Shown here in pieces: positions 20,162 to 48,684 of a stretch of 64,000 nucleotides of DNA. The stretch is from Synergistales bacterium (GTDB lineage Bacteria; Synergistota; Synergistia; Synergistales; JAFGMB01). The stretch is taken from positions 1,248,001 through 1,312,000 of the forward strand of contig OY762654.1 of the NCBI GenBank assembly GCA_963666205.1. Reading direction: 5' to 3'. Positions within the stretch are counted from its first letter, which is position 1; each line of letters opens with the position of its first letter. The translations under genes and the position numbers were made by a program. The notes under the pieces were generated by a model that was not told where the DNA came from, searched no databases, and was given only the letters and a program-made list of their open reading frames with translations.

Positions 20162-20773
20162 TCAGATACGGGGGTTCTCCCGTTCAAAACAGGTAATGCA
20201 GAGAACCCGTCCACCGGAAAGCCTTGCCTTTGTCTCCATAACCATTTCTCCACAATCTTCACAGGAAACACTTTTTTTCATGGGAGCATATTCAGGAACT
20301 GGGAACTGGACTTCCTTCACCTCGAACAGGTCTACCAGGTCAGCCCCCAGTATCATGCCGGAATGTTCATCCCGAAGTTCCAGAAACCGGGTCCAGTCAT
20401 CTTCAGAGAGGGAACCTTCGTTACTTTTCTTCTGCAGTTCCCTATACTCCTCCCGTCCTTTATCGTCACCAGGGCGAAGGACTATCCTTTTAGACTTTCC
20501 ATCCCTCCGACGGTAGAAACTGAAAGCGACCTTTCCCAATGTCCTGACCACAAGATTACCCTTTCCCAGGGTACATCCTGTGAGGAACTGGATGGCATCC
20601 ACTCCGCAGAAGTCCGTCTCTGCAACTGTAACGATATCTTCATCCAGGCTGTGGCCAAATTCCTGCAGGGCAAATTCTGACGCCCTGATACCGATCGCCA
20701 GCCCCGGACACCAGTGGCCGTGAAAATCTATACATTTATGTATAAGCTCTTCGGTAATTATTTGTTTGGACAT
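20162..20773 (-). CDS. fmdE: FmdE family protein with C-terminal zinc finger
   Basis: FHGH.CPGLA.G, C.VDAIQ..TGCT.GKGN and C-terminal CxxCGE...CxxC motifs. Confidence 0.92.
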   Translation of the reverse strand: MSKQIITEELIHKCIDFHGHWCPGLAIGIRASEFALQEFGHSLDEDIVTVAETDFCGVDAIQFLTGCTLGKGNLVVRTLGKVAFSFYRRRDGKSKRIVLRPGDDKGREEYRELQKKSNEGSLSEDDWTRFLELRDEHSGMILGADLVDLFEVKEVQFPVPEYAPMKKSVSCEDCGEMVMETKARLSGGRVLCITCFERENPRI

Positions 20774-20814
20774 ATAACTATCCCTCCTGAAAAGACAATT
20801 TCGATATTGACAGT

Positions 20815-21660
20815 TTAAGATACGTTTTTCCTGAAGAGTGGAACCGGATCAGCTCCCGAAGAATGACTGTGGAAATCTTCTCCCTCCAGAGGACAGTCCA
20901 AAGCTGCAGAAGGGATGACTACGGGAACGTCTCCTGCAAATATAAGCTCGACCTTGAGTCCATATATATCTTCAATGACCGACGCATTTATCTCCTCTCT
21001 GCTCAATGAATAGGCGATACGTCCATCCTTGAGGAAGAGGAACCTGTGGCCAAAACGGAAAGCCGTGTTCAGATCGTGCATGGTAACCACCGCTGCCAGA
21101 CCATGACCTGTGACGATATGGTCAAGGATCTCCATGACCTCCACCTGGTTCTTGAGGTCCAGGCTGCTGGTGGGCTCATCAAGTAAAAGAAGACCCGGCT
21201 CCTGAGCCAGTGCCCTTGCTATCATAACCTTCTGGATCTCCCCTCCGCTCATTTCATCCAGACTTCTAAGGGCAAGGTCTTCCAGATGAAGGGTCTGAAT
21301 TATTCCATCAACAGCTTTCAGGTCATTTTCTGTTACGTGCCACCCCATGTGTGGTCTGCGGCCAAGAAGAATAGCATCAAAAACAGAAACCCTCCCCGAC
21401 TGATTCCTCTGGGGAACATAACCTACCAGCCTTGCTATTTCCCGCTGGGAGAGGGAGAAAAGATCCTTCCCGTCAAGTAACATCTTCCCCCGTCCGGGAG
21501 TCAGGATACCGTTCATACATTTGAGAAGCGTAGACTTGCCTACTCCGTTGGGCCCCATGATCATCACTGTTTCACCGGGAGAAACGTTCAGAGTGATATC
21601 GTTCAGTACAGGACGTGAAGGATATTGAAAGTTCATATCCATAACCTGAAGTATCATCAC
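20815..21660 (-). CDS. Metal-chelate ABC transporter ATPase
   Basis: GPNGVGKST, MSGGE.QK and LLLDEPTS.LD motifs, with a His-containing tail. Confidence 0.92.
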   Translation of the reverse strand: MMILQVMDMNFQYPSRPVLNDITLNVSPGETVMIMGPNGVGKSTLLKCMNGILTPGRGKMLLDGKDLFSLSQREIARLVGYVPQRNQSGRVSVFDAILLGRRPHMGWHVTENDLKAVDGIIQTLHLEDLALRSLDEMSGGEIQKVMIARALAQEPGLLLLDEPTSSLDLKNQVEVMEILDHIVTGHGLAAVVTMHDLNTAFRFGHRFLFLKDGRIAYSLSREEINASVIEDIYGLKVELIFAGDVPVVIPSAALDCPLEGEDFHSHSSGADPVPLFRKNVS

Positions 21661-22724
21661 CTGTTCCCCCTTATTATCAGGTAAATAAACAGAGGTGCTC
21701 CCAGAAATGATGTAAGGACCGAAACGGGAAGTATCCTGGGTGAAATAACCGTCCTGGCTGCCAGATCCGCTCCCAGAAGAAGCAGTGATCCAACTATTGC
21801 AGCTCCGGGGATAAGGAATCTGTGGTCATCTCCCACTATTTTCCGGACCATATGAGGAGCCACAAGACCCACAAAACCTATCACGCCCACACAGGAAACA
21901 ATAAGAGCTGAAATCAGGGACGCCATGAACATTCCAAAAAGGCGTACCCTTTGAACTTTTACACCAAGAGAATGGGCAGATTCCTCTCCGGCGTCTATGG
22001 CATTATAGTCCCAGGATCTCCAGAGAAAGAAAAACATGGACAGCATGGATGCCAGTGAGAGAAGGATTACCTGAAGCCAGTCAGCCCTTGCCAGATCCCC
22101 GAAGGTCCAGAAAACCATCGCTGCCAATTCCGTATCGTCGGCAAAGAACTGAAGGATAAGGGTCCCTGCAGTAAACAGAGATCCAATTGCAACCCCTGAA
22201 AGTACTATGGATTCAGGAGAAATATTTCTTCGTCTTGAAAGAGCGAGGATGACCACTGTAGCTATAATGCTGGAACCAAATGCAAAAAAGAAGGTCAGTG
22301 GCATATTATTTATGGTAACAGCATTGGCAAGAGTGCTCTGCATTCCCCCCGAACCAAGAAGGATAACAGAAAAGGCCGCTCCGAATGCCGCAGCCTGTGA
22401 TATTCCAAGGGTAAAAGGCGATCCCAGAGGATTTCTCAGCAGGGACTGCATTACCCCTCCCGATACAGCCAACCCCACACCTGCTGCTATAGCGGCAAGA
22501 GCCTGTGGAAGACGGATCTTCCAAACTATGAGGCTCGTCTGCCTTGAAACATCATGACCATACAGACTCTTGAGGACCTCGGAAGGTGCAAGACGGACAG
22601 GACCAAGACAGAGAGAAAGAACAAACAATATAAGCAGCAATGCTCCCCCTGTAAAAAGCCATGTTTTTTTCCTGACTATATAAGCCCTGTAAGCGGCAGG
22701 ATCATGACCTCGTTCAATATGCAT
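21657..22724 (-). CDS. FecCD/BtuC-family ABC permease
   Basis: IRLP, Q.LLRNPL.SP..LGI, GEE.A.SLGV and GVIGFVGLVAPH motifs. Confidence 0.92.
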   Translation of the reverse strand: MHIERGHDPAAYRAYIVRKKTWLFTGGALLLILFVLSLCLGPVRLAPSEVLKSLYGHDVSRQTSLIVWKIRLPQALAAIAAGVGLAVSGGVMQSLLRNPLGSPFTLGISQAAAFGAAFSVILLGSGGMQSTLANAVTINNMPLTFFFAFGSSIIATVVILALSRRRNISPESIVLSGVAIGSLFTAGTLILQFFADDTELAAMVFWTFGDLARADWLQVILLSLASMLSMFFFLWRSWDYNAIDAGEESAHSLGVKVQRVRLFGMFMASLISALIVSCVGVIGFVGLVAPHMVRKIVGDDHRFLIPGAAIVGSLLLLGADLAARTVISPRILPVSVLTSFLGAPLFIYLIIRGNR

Positions 22725-22727
22725 ATA

Positions 22728-23855
22728 TTATTTCAGCTCCAACCTTTCGAAGGCCATACCCTTGAAGGAATCCTTCATAACATGGAACACGTCCTTATCC
22801 ACAAGGAATCGGAATATCTCATCAGCCTTTGCTTCCGGATCAACATCCTGAAAACGGTCAGGATAAAGCATTTTACCTATAAAATAGGCATTTGCCAATA
22901 TACTCCCGAAATTCTGGCTATACCAGTTATAGGGAAGGACCCCATATACTTCTCCAGTTTTAACAGCCTTAAGTTCCTGCCAGATGGGATCGGTCCTTAA
23001 TTCTGCAAGGGCACTTGCATCTTTCGGAGCATTGAGGGTGGAAAGATCGATAAAGATCACTTCCGGATCCCATTGAAGTATCTTTTCCCTGGAAACATCA
23101 GCCTGTGAGGAGGATCCTGTAAGCTCTTCTCCTGCAAAAGCCACGTTAGGAGTTCCCGTAAAGGCAAAAGGTGGATAACCCTTTTCCGTGGATCGAAGAC
23201 CATGGGGACCCTTGTAGGCGATCCCTCCCACATAAGCAGTTTTCCTGGAACCCTCTTCCATACCCTTCATCCGTCTGGACAGGTCCGTTATGTTATCTTC
23301 CAGAAAATCAATTACTGCTTCTGCCCTGTCTTTTTTGTCCATTACCTGCCCCATTATTCTTATGGACTGATAAAGGTTATCTTTCTGGTTAAAGAGGTTC
23401 CCGTATTCAAGGGGTATAACGGGTATACCAGTAGATTCCTGAAGCTTTCCTGCCGGAGTTCCCATCTCAGGATAGGTTTTGAAAATAACCTGCGGAAGAG
23501 ACTCAAGGGAAACTACAAGCTCTGGCCTTGTAAGACCTCGAAATTCACCTGTCTGGGGCAGATTTCTGAAAAAGGGGTTAGCTAGAAAATAGGGTCTTGG
23601 ATCTATGGGGATGTTTCTTTTCTCGATATCCTCAACTCCCGAAATCGTGCGGTGAGCCTGAAGATAGGTAAGCAATCTGAGGCAACCGGGGCCGGAACAT
23701 AGCACTTTTTCGACTTTCCTGTCAGCACTCAGAACATTGCCAAAGGCATCTTTTACGTCGGGATCATTCTCTGCAGAGAGAATTCCTGAAAAAGAGATCA
23801 GTAGGATTAAAGCAATAATGGTTATATTACATATTTTTCTGGAAGACAAAACCAT
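22728..23855 (-). CDS. FecB/BtuF-type ABC substrate-binding protein
   Basis: Signal peptide and class III SBP motifs (W..L.AVK.G.VY, YP..F.D.D). Start is ATG 23855 or TTG 23849 after GAGGTG. Confidence 0.88.
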   Translation of the reverse strand: MVLSSRKICNITIIALILLISFSGILSAENDPDVKDAFGNVLSADRKVEKVLCSGPGCLRLLTYLQAHRTISGVEDIEKRNIPIDPRPYFLANPFFRNLPQTGEFRGLTRPELVVSLESLPQVIFKTYPEMGTPAGKLQESTGIPVIPLEYGNLFNQKDNLYQSIRIMGQVMDKKDRAEAVIDFLEDNITDLSRRMKGMEEGSRKTAYVGGIAYKGPHGLRSTEKGYPPFAFTGTPNVAFAGEELTGSSSQADVSREKILQWDPEVIFIDLSTLNAPKDASALAELRTDPIWQELKAVKTGEVYGVLPYNWYSQNFGSILANAYFIGKMLYPDRFQDVDPEAKADEIFRFLVDKDVFHVMKDSFKGMAFERLELK

Positions 23856-23905
23856 CACCTCGTAACAGGGATTAGTAAAAACAGATTCAGAACATTTCCA
23901 GTATT

Positions 23906-23933
23906 GTAGCACATATTATTGATTTCGTAGCAC
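23906..23933 (-). promoter_or_regulatory. GTGCTAC-N14-GTGCTAC direct repeat overlapping an extended -10 (TGCTACAAT); candidate metal-responsive repressor site
   Basis: Perfect 7-bp direct repeat two helical turns apart, just upstream of the ABC-fmdE operon. Confidence 0.55.
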
Positions 23934-23971: not shown

Positions 23972-24006
23972 AAAAAAAGAGGACACCCCTCTCCAGGGCT
24001 GTCCTC
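23972..24006 (-). terminator. Intrinsic terminator after rhodanese 1
   Basis: GAGGACA...TGTCCTC stem followed by T7 on the minus strand, about 35 nt after the TAG at 24040. Confidence 0.7.
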
Positions 24007-24039
24007 AAAAGTTTCCTCATCTGTACTATTTATGTAATA

Positions 24040-24441
24040 CTACTCTCTGGGTTGTACCGGGTAACCCGCCTGGATCCAGGCTTTCCAGCCTCCCTTGAGA
24101 ACCTGAATATTTTCGAAACCTGCATCGATCATTTTTCGCGCCACACTGGCGCTTGTGAATTCGAAGGGTCAGGCACAATAGATAACGTATCTCTTGTCCT
24201 TGGGATAATCTGGAATCCATTCTTCCGTCTTCCAGGGATCTCCTCTGAAAGAACCCTCGATCATCTCATCACTCTTTTTCCAGTCACTGGTCTTCCTTGA
24301 ATCAATTACCACAAGATCTTCTGTTCCCAAAACACTGTTGAGTTCATCTACAGTGATCTTTGGAACAGCTTCTGCGATCATGGGAATGAACAGAAATAGC
24401 GACAACAATAGAACCAGGAACAGGGGTTTTCTAATTTTCAT
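24040..24441 (-). CDS. Exported rhodanese-domain selenoprotein 1 (in-frame TGA at 24169-24171 = Sec, motif YCAUP)
   Basis: Read-through gives ...YCAUPFEFTSASVARKMIDAGFENIQVLKGGWKAWIQAGYPVQPRE*, a complete rhodanese C-terminus (133 aa). RBS AGGAGGTGAT and an AEA signal peptide are present. Confidence 0.88.
24138..24152 (-). promoter_or_regulatory. Candidate bacterial SECIS apical hairpin, gene 1
   Basis: GCGCCA-GUG-UGGCGC starting 16 nt after the UGA, with G first in the loop. Confidence 0.75.
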
Positions 24442-24621
24442 AAACAAAATATCACCTCCTTTCATATATTTTCACATTTTAACATAATACGTGTTTAAAT
24501 ACATATCTATATTCTCCCCGGGTTATTTATCCGGATCTACAGAAATAAGGAATTCCAATTTAAAATTTAACAAGTCCTGACTCAACTTTTGGACCTGATC
24601 ATGACTATTGAACTGCAAAGG

Positions 24622-24652
24622 AAAAGACAGCCCACTCTTCAGGCTGTCTTTT
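24622..24652 (-). terminator. Intrinsic terminator after rhodanese 2
   Basis: AAAAGACAGCC...GGCTGTCTTTT inverted repeat. Confidence 0.7.
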
Positions 24653-24686
24653 AAAGGATCTTCACATTACGCATTTTATAGAATGA

Positions 24687-25097
24687 TCATTCTCTTGGCT
24701 GTACCGGATAACCCGCCCTGATCCAGGCTTTCCAGCCTCCCTCAAGGGCCTGTACATTCTCATACCCCCCCTGGATCATTGTCTGCGCCACCCTGGCGCT
24801 GGTGAATTCAGAGGGTCAGGCGCAATAAAGAACAAATTTCTTATCCCTGGGGTATTTTTTCATCCACTCTACCGTCTTCTCCGGATCCTCCCTGACGGCA
24901 CCCTGGATCATTTTATCGCTCTCTTCCCAGTCGCTTTGTTTCCGGACATCGATAATAACAAGATTCTCTTCTCCCCAGATACTGTAGAGTTCATCTACTT
25001 TTATCTTTGGCACTGCTGCTTCAGAAATTACAGGTATCATAAAAAACACCATAAACACAAGAAAAAGGAGGAGAGGTTTTCCAGCTTTTTGAAACAT
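24687..25097 (-). CDS. Exported rhodanese-domain selenoprotein 2 (in-frame TGA at 24816-24818 = Sec, motif YCAUP)
   Basis: Read-through gives ...YCAUPSEFTSARVAQTMIQGGYENVQALEGGWKAWIRAGYPVQPRE* (136 aa), colinear with paralog 1. RBS GGAGGTGAT and a signal peptide are present. Confidence 0.88.
24785..24799 (-). promoter_or_regulatory. Candidate bacterial SECIS apical hairpin, gene 2
   Basis: GCGCCA-GGG-UGGCGC 16 nt after the UGA. A lower stem CCCUCUG/CAGGGGG is possible. Confidence 0.75.
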
Positions 25098-25314
25098 AGG
25101 ATCACCTCCATACCAGTATGCTTGTATTTTATCATACATAACTACCATATCATTGTTGCACACTTGTAAACCGAGCTTCAGAAATACCTGGACCATGATA
25201 GAAGTATAGCTATCTGTCATAAAACAAGAAAAGAGCGGACTCTTTATCAAGCCCGCTCAAATTAATAGACGGTATTTCACTTCAATATATTTCTCTCAAC
25301 TTATCATTGACACT

Positions 25315-45695: not shown

Positions 45696-46835
45696 TTATA
45701 TATCCTTTACAGAAACATAGTCTGGTATGGATGAAGGCAGATCTATATTACTGCCTGTTGCATCATCAAGTATCTGAACTGCCCGGGCCTTGAAAATGAA
45801 GACTGCCTCCGCCCCTTGATCAAGTTCAAGGGATTCATATGAACTTACAGTGACCACTGCATGAAGGACAAGCTTTCCACGCATACCTGTCAGCCATACA
45901 AGAGGTCCTCTTCTCTCCGTTTCCGTAATAATGACCCTCATCTGGTTCCTGGAAGATATGATCATCTCTTCTTTTGCCACCATGATATCCTCCGGCCGAA
46001 CCGAAAAGATAACCTCCGAATCCTTCTGCAGTTCCGTTCCGGCAGAATAAAAACATTCACCATGGGTTCGTATCACCGAATTGCACAAGTCATCACATTC
46101 TGCTACCAATCCACTCAGAACATTTCTCGCACCAACCAGTCCTGCTACATATCCCGGCCTGGGGCAGCTGAAAACCTGTTCTGGTGTTCCCTGCTGAAGA
46201 AGTTCTCCTTCATGGATCACAGCAACCTGGTCAGCCAGGGCCCAAACGTCTTCGCTATCATGGGTAACGTGAAGGACTGTAATACCCAACTCCTGAACTG
46301 TTGACCTGACAAGTTTCCTCATTCTTTCCCGGGACGACAGGTCCAGAGCACTGAAAGCTTCATCCATCAGAAGTATTTCAGGCTTTGTGATAAGAGCCCT
46401 GGCAAGGGCTGTTCTCTGCTGCTCTCCTCCGGAAAGAGTTGAAATATCACGATGAAGCAGATCCTGAATATGAAGCTGGGTTGATATCTTTTTTACATTT
46501 TCTTCACATTCAAGGCTGGATATCCCTTTATCTTTAAGCCCGAAGGCAATATTGTGGAAAACATCCAGATGGGGGAAAAGCATGTAATCCTGGTAAACAA
46601 TACCCAGTTTCCGCCTCTCGGGAGGCCAGCTGGTAACGTCTTTTCCCCGAAGGAAAACCTTTCCCTTTCTGGGGTAGAATCCTCCCATGATCGTTTCCAG
46701 GAGAACACTTTTTCCTGCACCGGAAGCTCCGAGAAGACAGCAGTAAGATCCTTCAGGTACTTCGAATGATACATTTTTTAATGAAAATTCTCCGAGATCG
46801 ACAGAGAGTCCCTTTACTGAAAGAATATCCGTCAA
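45696..46835 (-). CDS. modC: Molybdate/tungstate ABC ATPase with C-terminal TOBE region
   Basis: GASGAGKS, LSGGEQQR and DEAFSALD motifs, with SSRN and FKA..V in the TOBE region. Confidence 0.85.
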   Translation of the reverse strand: MTDILSVKGLSVDLGEFSLKNVSFEVPEGSYCCLLGASGAGKSVLLETIMGGFYPRKGKVFLRGKDVTSWPPERRKLGIVYQDYMLFPHLDVFHNIAFGLKDKGISSLECEENVKKISTQLHIQDLLHRDISTLSGGEQQRTALARALITKPEILLMDEAFSALDLSSRERMRKLVRSTVQELGITVLHVTHDSEDVWALADQVAVIHEGELLQQGTPEQVFSCPRPGYVAGLVGARNVLSGLVAECDDLCNSVIRTHGECFYSAGTELQKDSEVIFSVRPEDIMVAKEEMIISSRNQMRVIITETERRGPLVWLTGMRGKLVLHAVVTVSSYESLELDQGAEAVFIFKARAVQILDDATGSNIDLPSSIPDYVSVKDI

Positions 46836-47617
46836 AGGACAACCTCCTTATTCAGCATCTCAAACACTATTATGGCAGCAAGGGAGATAGTGATGAGTAT
46901 GATACCGGAGGTCATTGCCATGGCCAGATTACCATAGGAAATGTTGAGATAGAGGGTTATGGGAAGGGTTTCAGTGTACATTCTTGTCCCTCCCGCAAGG
47001 ATGAGAACTGTTCCGAAACAGCCCATACATCTGGCAAAGGCAATTACCGCAGCAGCAAATATTCCACCCCTTGCCATAGGAACAGAAACCCTCAGAAAGG
47101 CTTTCATCTGACTGCATCCCAGGCTCCTTGCAACAAGCTCATACCTCGGACTTATGCCCCGGAAAGTACCATAGACGACCCTGATGGCATAGGGAGCGGC
47201 TGTAAAAACCTGGGCAATAACAATAGCCCATTTACTGAAAACCACATGGATACCCATTCCTTTAAGCCAGTCTCCAAGGGGACCATGTCCAAAAAGGAGA
47301 AGGAGACAGAGTCCAAGGACGAGTTCCGGGAAAGCCATGGGTAGATCCACAATGGTCCGTAGAAGATGATGTCCCGGGAAATGGAATCTGGCGAGCACAT
47401 AACCTATGGAAACGGCAAGGAACATAACGATCAGCACAGAAAGCAGACTTGACAGGAGAGAAAGCTTTACACTGTAGATCATTTCACTGGAAAGGGCGCT
47501 CTCGATTATTTCCTCCCCTTCCGGCATTAATACCAGTGATAAGATCGACCATATGAGCAGCCCCGAGAAGAGAACCGTAATTCCTCCCAGGGCTGCCCTG
47601 AAAATCCTGTTACCCAT
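46832..47617 (-). CDS. modB: Molybdate/tungstate ABC permease
   Basis: LAR..FPG, DLP..FP..V.G, ARSLG, FAR..G.FG and T.TLP..LY motifs. Confidence 0.88.
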   Translation of the reverse strand: MGNRIFRAALGGITVLFSGLLIWSILSLVLMPEGEEIIESALSSEMIYSVKLSLLSSLLSVLIVMFLAVSIGYVLARFHFPGHHLLRTIVDLPMAFPELVLGLCLLLLFGHGPLGDWLKGMGIHVVFSKWAIVIAQVFTAAPYAIRVVYGTFRGISPRYELVARSLGCSQMKAFLRVSVPMARGGIFAAAVIAFARCMGCFGTVLILAGGTRMYTETLPITLYLNISYGNLAMAMTSGIILITISLAAIIVFEMLNKEVVL

Positions 47618-47619
47618 TC

Positions 47620-48402
47620 CTATAAAGGCTTTTCAAGGGGGAATCCCCATTTGTTCCAGATCGTCTTACCTTCATCGGACGTGATGAACTGAATGAACCT
47701 CTCTGCCGTTTCAGGCCTCTGGCTGTAGGATACCACGGAAGCCGGGATGGTTTTGATTATATTCTTTGAAGGGTCTATATGAACGATATCCACCTTGCCC
47801 TTCGACTGGGCCCATGTGGACTGATCTTCCCATGCTATTGTACCGTCCACCTGGGAAGTGGCGGTATAAATGAGGAGCTGATTTGTGGTACTCGGACTGG
47901 TTACGACATTCTTCATTATCGATTCTTTGAGCCCGTTCTTTTCCAGGATCTTGATCCCCACCTGGCCTATGGCTGCAGCTTTTGGATCTGCCATTGCAAG
48001 TCTTACTCCATCCCTGGCCATGTCTTCCAGGCATGTAATGTTACCCGGATTTCCCTTTGGGGTCAGGATAACGGGAACGTGGTAGCAGATCGTGGCACTC
48101 CCTTTTTCAACTACCATTCCCTTGTTGAGGGCATCTTTGGTATACTTTTCAGCACCAGGGATATAAACGTCTCCGGCCTTCCTTGTGGCTATCATTCCGA
48201 AAAGCTCACCAGAACCTGCATAGATCATACGAACCTGACAGCTTTCCTTCTCCTGGAACATCACCTGAAGCTCGTCCATGGGTTTCATCAGACCCGCCCC
48301 GCAATATACAAGGAGGGGTTCCTCCTCCGCTACGGCCGCAAGGGTCCCTGCAAAACACACAGCTACAAGAATTAAAAGAATAAACAATGACACTTTTCGC
48401 AT
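47620..48402 (-). CDS. modA: Molybdate/tungstate-binding protein
   Basis: Y.GAGL, Y.GSG.L, GNP.NI..L.D and DP..AAIG motifs, with a signal peptide. Start at 48402 after GGAGGTG. Confidence 0.88.
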   Translation of the reverse strand: MRKVSLFILLILVAVCFAGTLAAVAEEEPLLVYCGAGLMKPMDELQVMFQEKESCQVRMIYAGSGELFGMIATRKAGDVYIPGAEKYTKDALNKGMVVEKGSATICYHVPVILTPKGNPGNITCLEDMARDGVRLAMADPKAAAIGQVGIKILEKNGLKESIMKNVVTSPSTTNQLLIYTATSQVDGTIAWEDQSTWAQSKGKVDIVHIDPSKNIIKTIPASVVSYSQRPETAERFIQFITSDEGKTIWNKWGFPLEKPL

Positions 48403-48418
48403 AAATACCTGCACCTCC

Positions 48419-48458
48419 AAAAAAGAATGGCCCTCTCCAGAGAAAAGGAAGAGAGCCA
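48419..48458 (-). terminator. Riboswitch expression-platform terminator
   Basis: UGGCUCUCUUCC...GGAGAGGGCCA followed by UUCUUUUUU, upstream of the modA RBS. Confidence 0.8.
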
Positions 48459-48478
48459 GGCATGGACAATGGCTATCC

Positions 48479-48575
48479 TTCTCCTTTCCAGACGTGGGAG
48501 GCAATTTCCATTTCGGAAATTACCCATTGGCCTTCTACCATAGGTAACCCCTTAGGCATAAAGGCTCGGAGAGAG
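48479..48575 (-). ncRNA. Moco-motif riboswitch, P3-less (Tuco-type) variant
   Basis: UCUCCGAG-GCC...CCUAAG...UAUGG...GGC-CAAU-GGGUAAUUUCC GAAA UGGAAAUUGCCU-CCC...UGGAAAGGAGA, upstream of modABC. Confidence 0.88.
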
Positions 48576-48684
48576 TTGATATTCATAGATAATAATCATT
48601 ATCAATATATAACACAAGGGTACATGGAATCAATTCGCAAAGAAAGATCGTGGGGAATCTTATCCGGGGAGAATAACTGGAGAT

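Follow-up and report, generated by a model that had tools for sequence, protein, structure and literature searches.

The results of this work point to two tandem genes of a Synergistales bacterium that very probably encode genuine selenocysteine (Sec)-containing rhodaneses, both of which are shortened by standard gene calling. They lie on the minus strand of a 64,000-nucleotide (nt) stretch of contig OY762654.1 (assembly GCA_963666205.1, positions 1,248,001 to 1,312,000), hereafter the window, with gene 2 upstream of gene 1, and in each an in-frame UGA falls in the active-site loop of the rhodanese domain. With a probability of about 0.88, both encode Sec-containing members of the family described by the NCBIfam model NF041203 (rhodanese_LYCAU, "rhodanese-related (seleno)protein"). 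As such they are ordinary members of an already catalogued selenoprotein family, not new ones. The novelty implied by the first-pass annotation of this DNA was not upheld, as the family is already curated under NF041203 and figures in passages of two selenoprotein reviews (PMC13188914, PMC9312934).

Under translation table 11, the two open reading frames (ORFs) span 24169-24465 (98 amino acids) and 24816-25250, and both end with ...YCA followed by TGA in the rhodanese loop, exactly as the first-pass annotation had described. When TGA is translated as Sec (U), the codon becomes U99 in gene 1 (read from ATG 24465) and U94 in gene 2, and each is followed by the announced 42 in-frame sense codons up to the gene's own stop, a TAG in gene 1 and a second TGA in gene 2. 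The Pfam domain Rhodanese (PF00581), of which each product contains a single copy, reaches its full extent only when the TGA is read through (1-101 and 2-101 of the 102 profile positions), with full-length matches at E = 1.4e-10 for gene 1 and 2.5e-13 for gene 2. The start of gene 1 is most likely TTG 24447, since GGAGGTGAT and a 3-nt spacing match those of the gene 2 ATG and since this TTG is kept in a same-genus genome, where ATG 24441 reads CTG. Such a start yields MFMKIRKP... beside MFQKAGKP... in gene 2, while the alternative upstream in-frame ATG 24465 would extend gene 1 to 141 amino acids; the two products are 61% identical when gene 1 is read from the TTG and 63% from the ATG. Across 84 complete family members (loci L028-L115), the true stop is TGA in 42, TAA in 23 and TAG in 19, so the use of UGA for both Sec and termination within one short gene is common in the family.

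Read through the TGA, genes 1 and 2 score 149.1 and 161.5 bits against NF041203 (equivalog model, cut-off 115 bits), the matches running from profile position 4/5 to 125 out of 126; a six-frame search of the genome returned them at 141.8 and 154 bits, respectively. The CxU motif is found in both, with the in-frame TGA as U (VIYCAU in gene 1 and VLYCAU in gene 2). Together with the (L/I)YCAU motif, the window proteins share with the family a single Sec, a hydrophobic leader at the N-terminus and a rhodanese domain. They show no essential difference from it, the distinctions being their occurrence as two tandem paralogues and the Ile of gene 1 replacing the Leu of the motif name. A passage of a 2026 review treats the family as rhodanese form 3, characterized by the CxU motif, and names Zhang and Gladyshev 2005 (bSECISearch) as its source; the discovery of the Sec-containing CxU rhodanese would accordingly date to 2005, and it is built into NCBI annotation models (PMC13188914). 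In the relevant part of a 2022 review, the family stands among predicted selenoprotein families, most of whose functions are unclear, and Synergistetes are presented as selenoprotein-rich (PMC9312934). An Acetomicrobium genome also serves as an example entry in part of a 2026 database paper (PMC13326102).

The recoded codon and the frame behind it are conserved. A scan of metagenome contigs confirmed at least 496 relatives, of which the best 80 were examined, and TGA is present at the aligned codon in all 80. The motif script, whose pattern also accepted Cys or Trp, scored 78 of these loci; the remaining two (L044 and L059), which escaped the pattern on other grounds, were read by hand and both have TGA. 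The codon is likewise kept in all eight other genomic copies (two in G001, one each in G003 and G004, two at L032, and L033 and L034, which score below the NF041203 cut-off). Past the UGA, differences between gene 1 and its relatives are concentrated at third codon positions (7/4/19 for the first, second and third positions against L030, 7/4/20 against L036), and for this reason the downstream frame is, on codon-level evidence, under protein-level selection. Among the full-length single-domain representative clusters, 29 of 52 have Cys at the Sec position, a count that possibly includes Sec entries because U is stored as C. Besides, C-x-C is found in 30 of the 283 domain rows, and P0004 and P0005 read YCACP. 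TGA or Cys is what the first-pass annotation had looked for at this position in homologues, and it is what they show, apart from a few Trp forms discussed below.

Bacterial Sec insertion obeys a distance rule for a stem-loop just 3' of the UGA and carrying a G in its apical loop (the Sec insertion sequence, SECIS; bSECISearch literature). The 6-base-pair (bp) hairpin GCGCCA-G(U/G)G-UGGCGC that the first-pass annotation had placed 16 nt past each UGA was recovered in both genes, with this spacing and folding as predicted. In a gap-free alignment of 79 distinct 72-nt sequences, the hairpin is kept in every one. At each of the stem pairs 26-40, 28-38, 29-37 and 30-36, 78 sequences have the commonest pair and the remaining one has a G-U-type pair, whereas pair 27-39 varies between U-A (52 sequences), C-G (15) and U-G (11) and is broken in a single case. 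Since columns 27 and 39 are the wobble bases of Ser AGY and Ala GCR codons, this covariation connects synonymous sites. In the same vein, the in-stem Ala wobble at column 30 is C in 78/79 sequences and the in-stem Val/Leu wobble at column 36 is G in 79/79, compared with only 9/79 G at a Val wobble outside the hairpin (column 72). The loop G32 is invariant despite a varying residue (R 55, S 20, G 2, W 2), the codons all having G in the middle. RNAalifold returned a 5-bp helix as the sole consensus structure; the window copies add an A-U pair, resulting in a 6-bp stem with a 3-nt loop, while most family members show a stem of 5 bp and a loop of 5 nt. Conservation does not reach into a longer lower SECIS stem, whose two extra pairs past an A-A mismatch occur in some relatives only and are dropped by RNAalifold. 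A scan of the window at Rfam gathering thresholds, against a library that holds described families only, matched no SECIS family and returned a molybdenum cofactor (Moco) riboswitch alone. The double use of TGA proposed for gene 2 also stood up: the recoded TGA is followed by the hairpin, while the true stop has none at SECIS distance, the downstream 63 nt folding at -7.1 kcal/mol (z +0.39). It is this comparative evidence, not single folds, that lifts both hairpins above chance. With a conserved and covarying hairpin and NF041203 membership, the Sec-containing rhodanese put forward by the first-pass annotation is supported.

The genome is equipped for Sec decoding, as that annotation presupposed: selA (564.7 bits) and selB (364 bits) are adjacent, the tRNA-Sec gene selC (77.1 bits) has the anticodon TCA, and selD (333.7 bits; G000:C1:2905894-2906826, minus strand, L018) completes the set, all four being above their cut-offs. 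Because selD itself holds one in-frame TGA, its product is probably a selenoprotein too. TGA is not reassigned genome-wide, since it ends 24 of the 46 window ORFs of at least 200 amino acids and is their commonest stop. We infer Sec insertion at both UGAs because the TGA is conserved, the hairpin is conserved and covarying, the Sec machinery is present, TGA is not reassigned and the downstream frame is selected. The recoding route would follow standard bacterial Sec decoding. A ribosome would meet the in-frame UGA, the G+C-rich hairpin of 5-6 bp located 16 nt downstream would recruit, with its loop G, SelB carrying Sec-tRNA(Sec), and Sec would be inserted before 42 further codons are translated to the true stop. 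The resulting product of ~135 amino acids would consist of an N-terminal signal peptide and one rhodanese domain.

Several observations weigh against this reading or its extension to function. The support for Sec insertion sits at the sequence level and not at the protein level. Folded singly, the hairpin regions do not stand out (z -1.3 and -1.2), and one variable pair carries all the covariation, whose Fisher p = 1.9e-8 is uncorrected for relatedness and overstates the signal, the sequences being related. RNA-library contigs from four libraries of two studies (sediment samples) bridge both UGAs and speak for the Sec reading, but such contigs show presence and cannot prove transcription or mark ends. 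No gene partner is conserved across the family, which leaves the chemistry proposed below unsupported by gene context. Finally, alignments disagree on whether C92 or U94 (gene 2 numbering) is the canonical catalytic residue.

The localization of the proteins offers the alternative that survives best. Read by eye, both N-termini have a basic start and a hydrophobic run of ~16 residues followed by AEA/VP or SEA/AVP (the slash marking the presumed cleavage site). The same pattern is present in all complete relatives, some with a lipobox-like Cys, which suggests that export, and signal-peptide cleavage with it, is a family trait. Alternatively, the proteins might be real selenoproteins whose hydrophobic N-terminus is an uncleaved membrane anchor, making them membrane-tethered and not free secreted or periplasmic enzymes, or they might be cytoplasmic, a scenario that we consider unlikely. 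It is favored by the AlphaFold2 (AF2) model, in which the first ~30 residues (predicted local distance difference test, pLDDT, of 65-76) include one low-confidence helix at residues 6-19, by lipobox-like ...GGC, ...GCA and ...SC sequences that suggest lipid anchoring in several relatives, and by signal-less CAU rhodaneses in other genomes of the phylum. However, small-x-small sites lie right behind the hydrophobic run in both window proteins, and the basic and hydrophobic N-terminal pattern is conserved across the family. The signal-less forms were seen in other Synergistota families (L033, G030:C1:146410-146619; L034, G266:C63:103106-103315). They are shorter CAU rhodaneses (...FYCAUPAEHTSASVA...) that start with MAVEKV... 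in place of a hydrophobic leader and score 65.7 and 64.3 bits against NF041203, below the cut-off; by their sequences, they have the appearance of a sister form of the family that stays in the cytoplasm.

Two other explanations deny Sec altogether, and both are very improbable. The UGA could be read as one of the standard amino acids (Trp, Cys or Gly), through near-cognate or reassigned decoding, and W is indeed found at this position in 2 of the 52 representatives and in P0006. The simplest account of these W forms would be that a metagenome gene caller translated TGA with a different code. Such decoding is also at odds with TGA being the commonest long-ORF stop in the window and the true stop of gene 2, with the full Sec machinery and with a conserved hairpin of the SelB-binding type. 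Conversely, if the UGAs were plain stops, leaving rhodanese fragments of ~93-98 amino acids or decaying pseudogenes with a remnant frame, the table 11 calls and the public predicted proteins that stop at YCA would be correct, as would the 32 representatives ending at YC[ASDT] (32/44 of the short ones, 32/149 of the top representative clusters), but a remnant would not keep the TGA in 80/80 distant relatives, an intact 42-codon frame with third-position bias and a covarying hairpin, and the shortened product would lack half of the rhodanese fold.

Under the Sec reading, the active-site loop runs Y91-C92-A93-U94-P-x-E97-F-T99-S100 in gene 2 numbering. The canonical catalytic rhodanese loop is C-X4-[R/T]-[S/T/A], in which the catalytic Cys ends the strand and opens onto a six-residue cradle loop that includes a basic residue; the present family has two residues more than canonical rhodaneses between strand and helix, and no Arg. 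For the AF2 model (mean pLDDT 90.2, with Cys for Sec and a 61-row alignment), the top Foldseek matches are rhodanese domains (6mxv, 3gk5, 3ilm, 2hhg and GlpE, 1gmx). In the gapless HMMER alignment to both 6mxv domains, U94 is paired with the catalytic Cys and T99 with the Arg, whereas in the 6h98 alignment C92 takes the place of the catalytic Cys. When the 283 domain rows are aligned to the family profile, at least 223 place C92 at the canonical position and 33 have Cys on the U column only. The secondary structure of the model (DSSP; strand 87-91, helix from 98) agrees with C92 as the canonical residue, and homologues in which S, T or D replaces U point the same way, since they keep the first Cys. 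We slightly prefer C92 to U94 as the canonical residue, which would place Sec two positions into the loop.

Compared with known systems, a UxU form of rhodanese-related sulfurtransferase selenoprotein is described in part of a study on Olavius algarvensis symbionts (PMC1976440). It has the same loop with Sec at the third position as in the window genes, and differs by having Sec also for the first Cys, which is TGT or TGC in the window. A third leader-bearing rhodanese gene outside the window, in the same genome (L026, G000:C1:2314337-2317507; match 2315837-2316007, plus strand), has two in-frame TGAs in its loop (...IIFY-U-A-U-PEEAS...), i.e. the UxU form, and scores 37.4 bits against NF041203, below the cut-off. 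The genome also holds a leaderless paralogue (L025, G000:C1:920899-924096; match 922399-922596, plus strand) with a C-x-S loop (...VFYCDSENESVST...), in which the first Cys is kept and Ser occupies the Sec position. Among solved structures, the closest is the two-domain rhodanese-like 6mxv (sequence E = 7.9e-29, Foldseek E = 1.9e-9), which shares the C-terminal GGW..W..YP motif; its loops are canonical (CGGGFRS/CGSGFRS) with Arg, in contrast to the Arg-less C-A-U-P-x-E-F-T-S of the window proteins. The "sulfide dehydrogenase" 1qxn and YnjE (2wlr, 3ipo), which we take to be periplasmic sulfur carriers, combine a rhodanese fold with a leader as the window proteins do, and their E-values against the family profile are 1.7e-5 and 2.5e-10, respectively. 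Unlike the window proteins, they have a catalytic Cys only, without Sec, the C-x-U pair or the two extra strand-helix residues. TsoB, a rhodanese/DsbD fusion-like selenoprotein (NF045694), also has a Sec-containing rhodanese domain; membership of the window proteins in that family was rejected, as their scores (20.7 and 29.9 bits) stay below the 805-bit cut-off, they have no DsbD part and they do not carry the TsoB motif UxxxxU.

The family is widely distributed among metagenomes of anoxic sediments and wetlands, where the at least 496 relatives were found. In a sample of the phylum, 4 of 268 genomes have a match above the NF041203 cut-off, all within the taxonomic family of the window, and within that family 3 of the 4 other genomes searched have one. 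The closest named record is a metagenome-assembled genome labelled Acetomicrobium hydrogeniformans, with 89% identity to gene 2, which puts the window in Synergistota, and a search of genome contigs with one window protein as query returned a single locus (L032). The duplication postulated by the first-pass annotation is real, in the form of paralogues with the identities given above. In a maximum-likelihood tree of 61 rows, all nine Synergistota-type copies form one clade (support 100/96). Because the only copy of a second genus comes out as the sister of the gene-1-type copies (100/93), the tree makes genes 1 and 2 old paralogues and the duplication old, not recent. The root was placed at the midpoint, and support is only 85/79 where the two paralogue types join.

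Each copy has its own ribosome-binding site and probably its own promoter and terminator (Table 1). The terminators claimed by the first-pass annotation fared unequally: that of gene 1 is clear, being called by the scanner and folding at -26.8 kcal/mol over 81 nt (z -4.05, 0/200 shuffles as stable), while the hairpin past gene 2, which the scanner did not call and whose U run lies partly within the stem, is only plausible as a terminator. The RNA-library contigs cover 24015-24370 and 24687-25107 (X1), 24016-24337 and 24761-24918 (X2), 24016-24431 (X3), and 24102-24378 and 24692-24857 (X6). The spacer at 24432-24686 and the regions below 24015 and above 25107 are free of them, which fits, without proving, two transcription units, in which case genes 1 and 2 would be transcribed separately. 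X1, X2 and X3, from two studies, all end at 24015/24016, ~22 nt beyond the stop codon of gene 1 and with 9-10 nt left to the terminator hairpin, and one of the three has an adapter-like loose end there. This gives a weak hint of an RNA end, or of a reverse-transcription stop at the hairpin.

Table 1. Features of the rhodanese gene pair (window positions; aa, amino acids)
Feature	Position	Strand	Basis or remark
Gene 1 coding sequence	24040..24447	-	135 aa incl. Sec, probable start TTG 24447; translation; NF041203 149.1 bits
Gene 1 in-frame UGA	24169..24171	-	Sec in motif YCAU
Gene 1 SECIS-type hairpin, GCGCCA/GUG/UGGCGC	24138..24152	-	fold; family conservation and covariation
Gene 1 true stop, TAG	24037..24039	-	translation
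Gene 1 Shine-Dalgarno, GGAGG	24455..24459	-	sequence
Gene 1 extended -10-like site, TGnTAAAAT	24476-24484	-	by eye; kept in same-genus genome; not returned by scanner
Intrinsic terminator after gene 1, GAGGACA...UGUCCUC + U7	23972..24006	-	scanner match 23994-23974; fold
Gene 2 coding sequence	24690..25097	-	136 aa incl. Sec, ATG 25097; translation; NF041203 161.5 bits
Gene 2 in-frame UGA	24816..24818	-	Sec in motif LYCAU
Gene 2 SECIS-type hairpin, GCGCCA/GGG/UGGCGC	24785..24799	-	fold; family conservation and covariation
Gene 2 true stop, second TGA	24687..24689	-	translation
Gene 2 Shine-Dalgarno, GGAGG	25105-25109	-	sequence
Promoter-like site upstream of gene 2, ATGATA-16-TAAAAT with TG	25126..25153	-	scanner and sequence
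Terminator-like 12-bp hairpin after gene 2	24632..24662	-	folds; not called by scanner
Terminator of the gene upstream of gene 2	25258-25233	-	scanner

The gene neighborhood search took in 112 of the 117 ORFs that flank the metagenome loci most closely, five having been dropped from the duplicate loci L037, L038 and L086. The flanking families (DndB-like 18, cyclophilin 11, DUF547 7, amidase 6, and DUF6982, flavodoxin-like and GntR/FCD 3 each) are specific to lineages, and the window has none of them in common with these loci. In one large clade (loci L041-L111), the rhodanese gene stands between a divergent DndB-like gene (18 loci) and a downstream gene that encodes a secreted-type cyclophilin (11 loci) or is an abutting or overlapping DUF547 gene (7 loci). 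In the window, the minus strand past the gene 1 terminator (20162-23912) carries a Peripla_BP_2/FecCD/ABC_tran transporter and then an FmdE-domain protein with a DksA/TraR zinc finger; in other genomes, these neighbors showed no link to rhodanese genes. The other flank of the pair gives a weak, sub-cut-off match to Glt_symporter. Farther away, at 45696-48583 on the minus strand, the Moco riboswitch (48468-48583, 64.6 bits) stands ahead of a transporter of the ModABC type (SBP_bac_11, BPD_transp_1, and ABC_tran with TOBE).

In terms of annotation, both genes are ~45% longer than their table 11 calls and their products are selenoproteins; the statement that standard callers shorten them, made by the first-pass annotation, is correct, and public predicted-protein collections are full of shortened forms of these rhodaneses. 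On the functional side, Cys and Sec would most likely act jointly: after export, the Cys-x-Sec pair may form a selenylsulfide or a per(seleno)sulfide-carrying center with a mixed S/Se chain. The pair may thereby serve in sulfur or selenium transfer, or in thiol-type redox chemistry, outside the cytoplasmic membrane.

Acetomicrobium-type Synergistota lack cytochromes b and c, and their pathways for sulfur and thiosulfate reduction are unknown according to passages of one study (PMC6025917); relatives of the organism reduce sulfur, thiosulfate, cysteine or cystine to sulfide by routes that are likewise given as unknown in parts of two (PMC6025917, PMC3739175). The pair might be the extracytoplasmic sulfur-handling part of such an elemental-sulfur/thiosulfate reduction route, a proposal that we regard as doubtful. 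The Cys-x-Sec loop would then accept sulfane sulfur, with thiosulfate or polysulfide as the donor, in the form of a Cys-S-S(n)-Se-Sec bridge and hand it on. The leader peptides, the rhodanese fold and the RNA-library contigs from sediment are compatible with it. If true, selenium would make the sulfur carrier faster than the known Cys-only carriers. An exported Cys-x-Sec center in a host whose sulfur/thiosulfate reduction route is unknown makes the pair a reasonable target for study.

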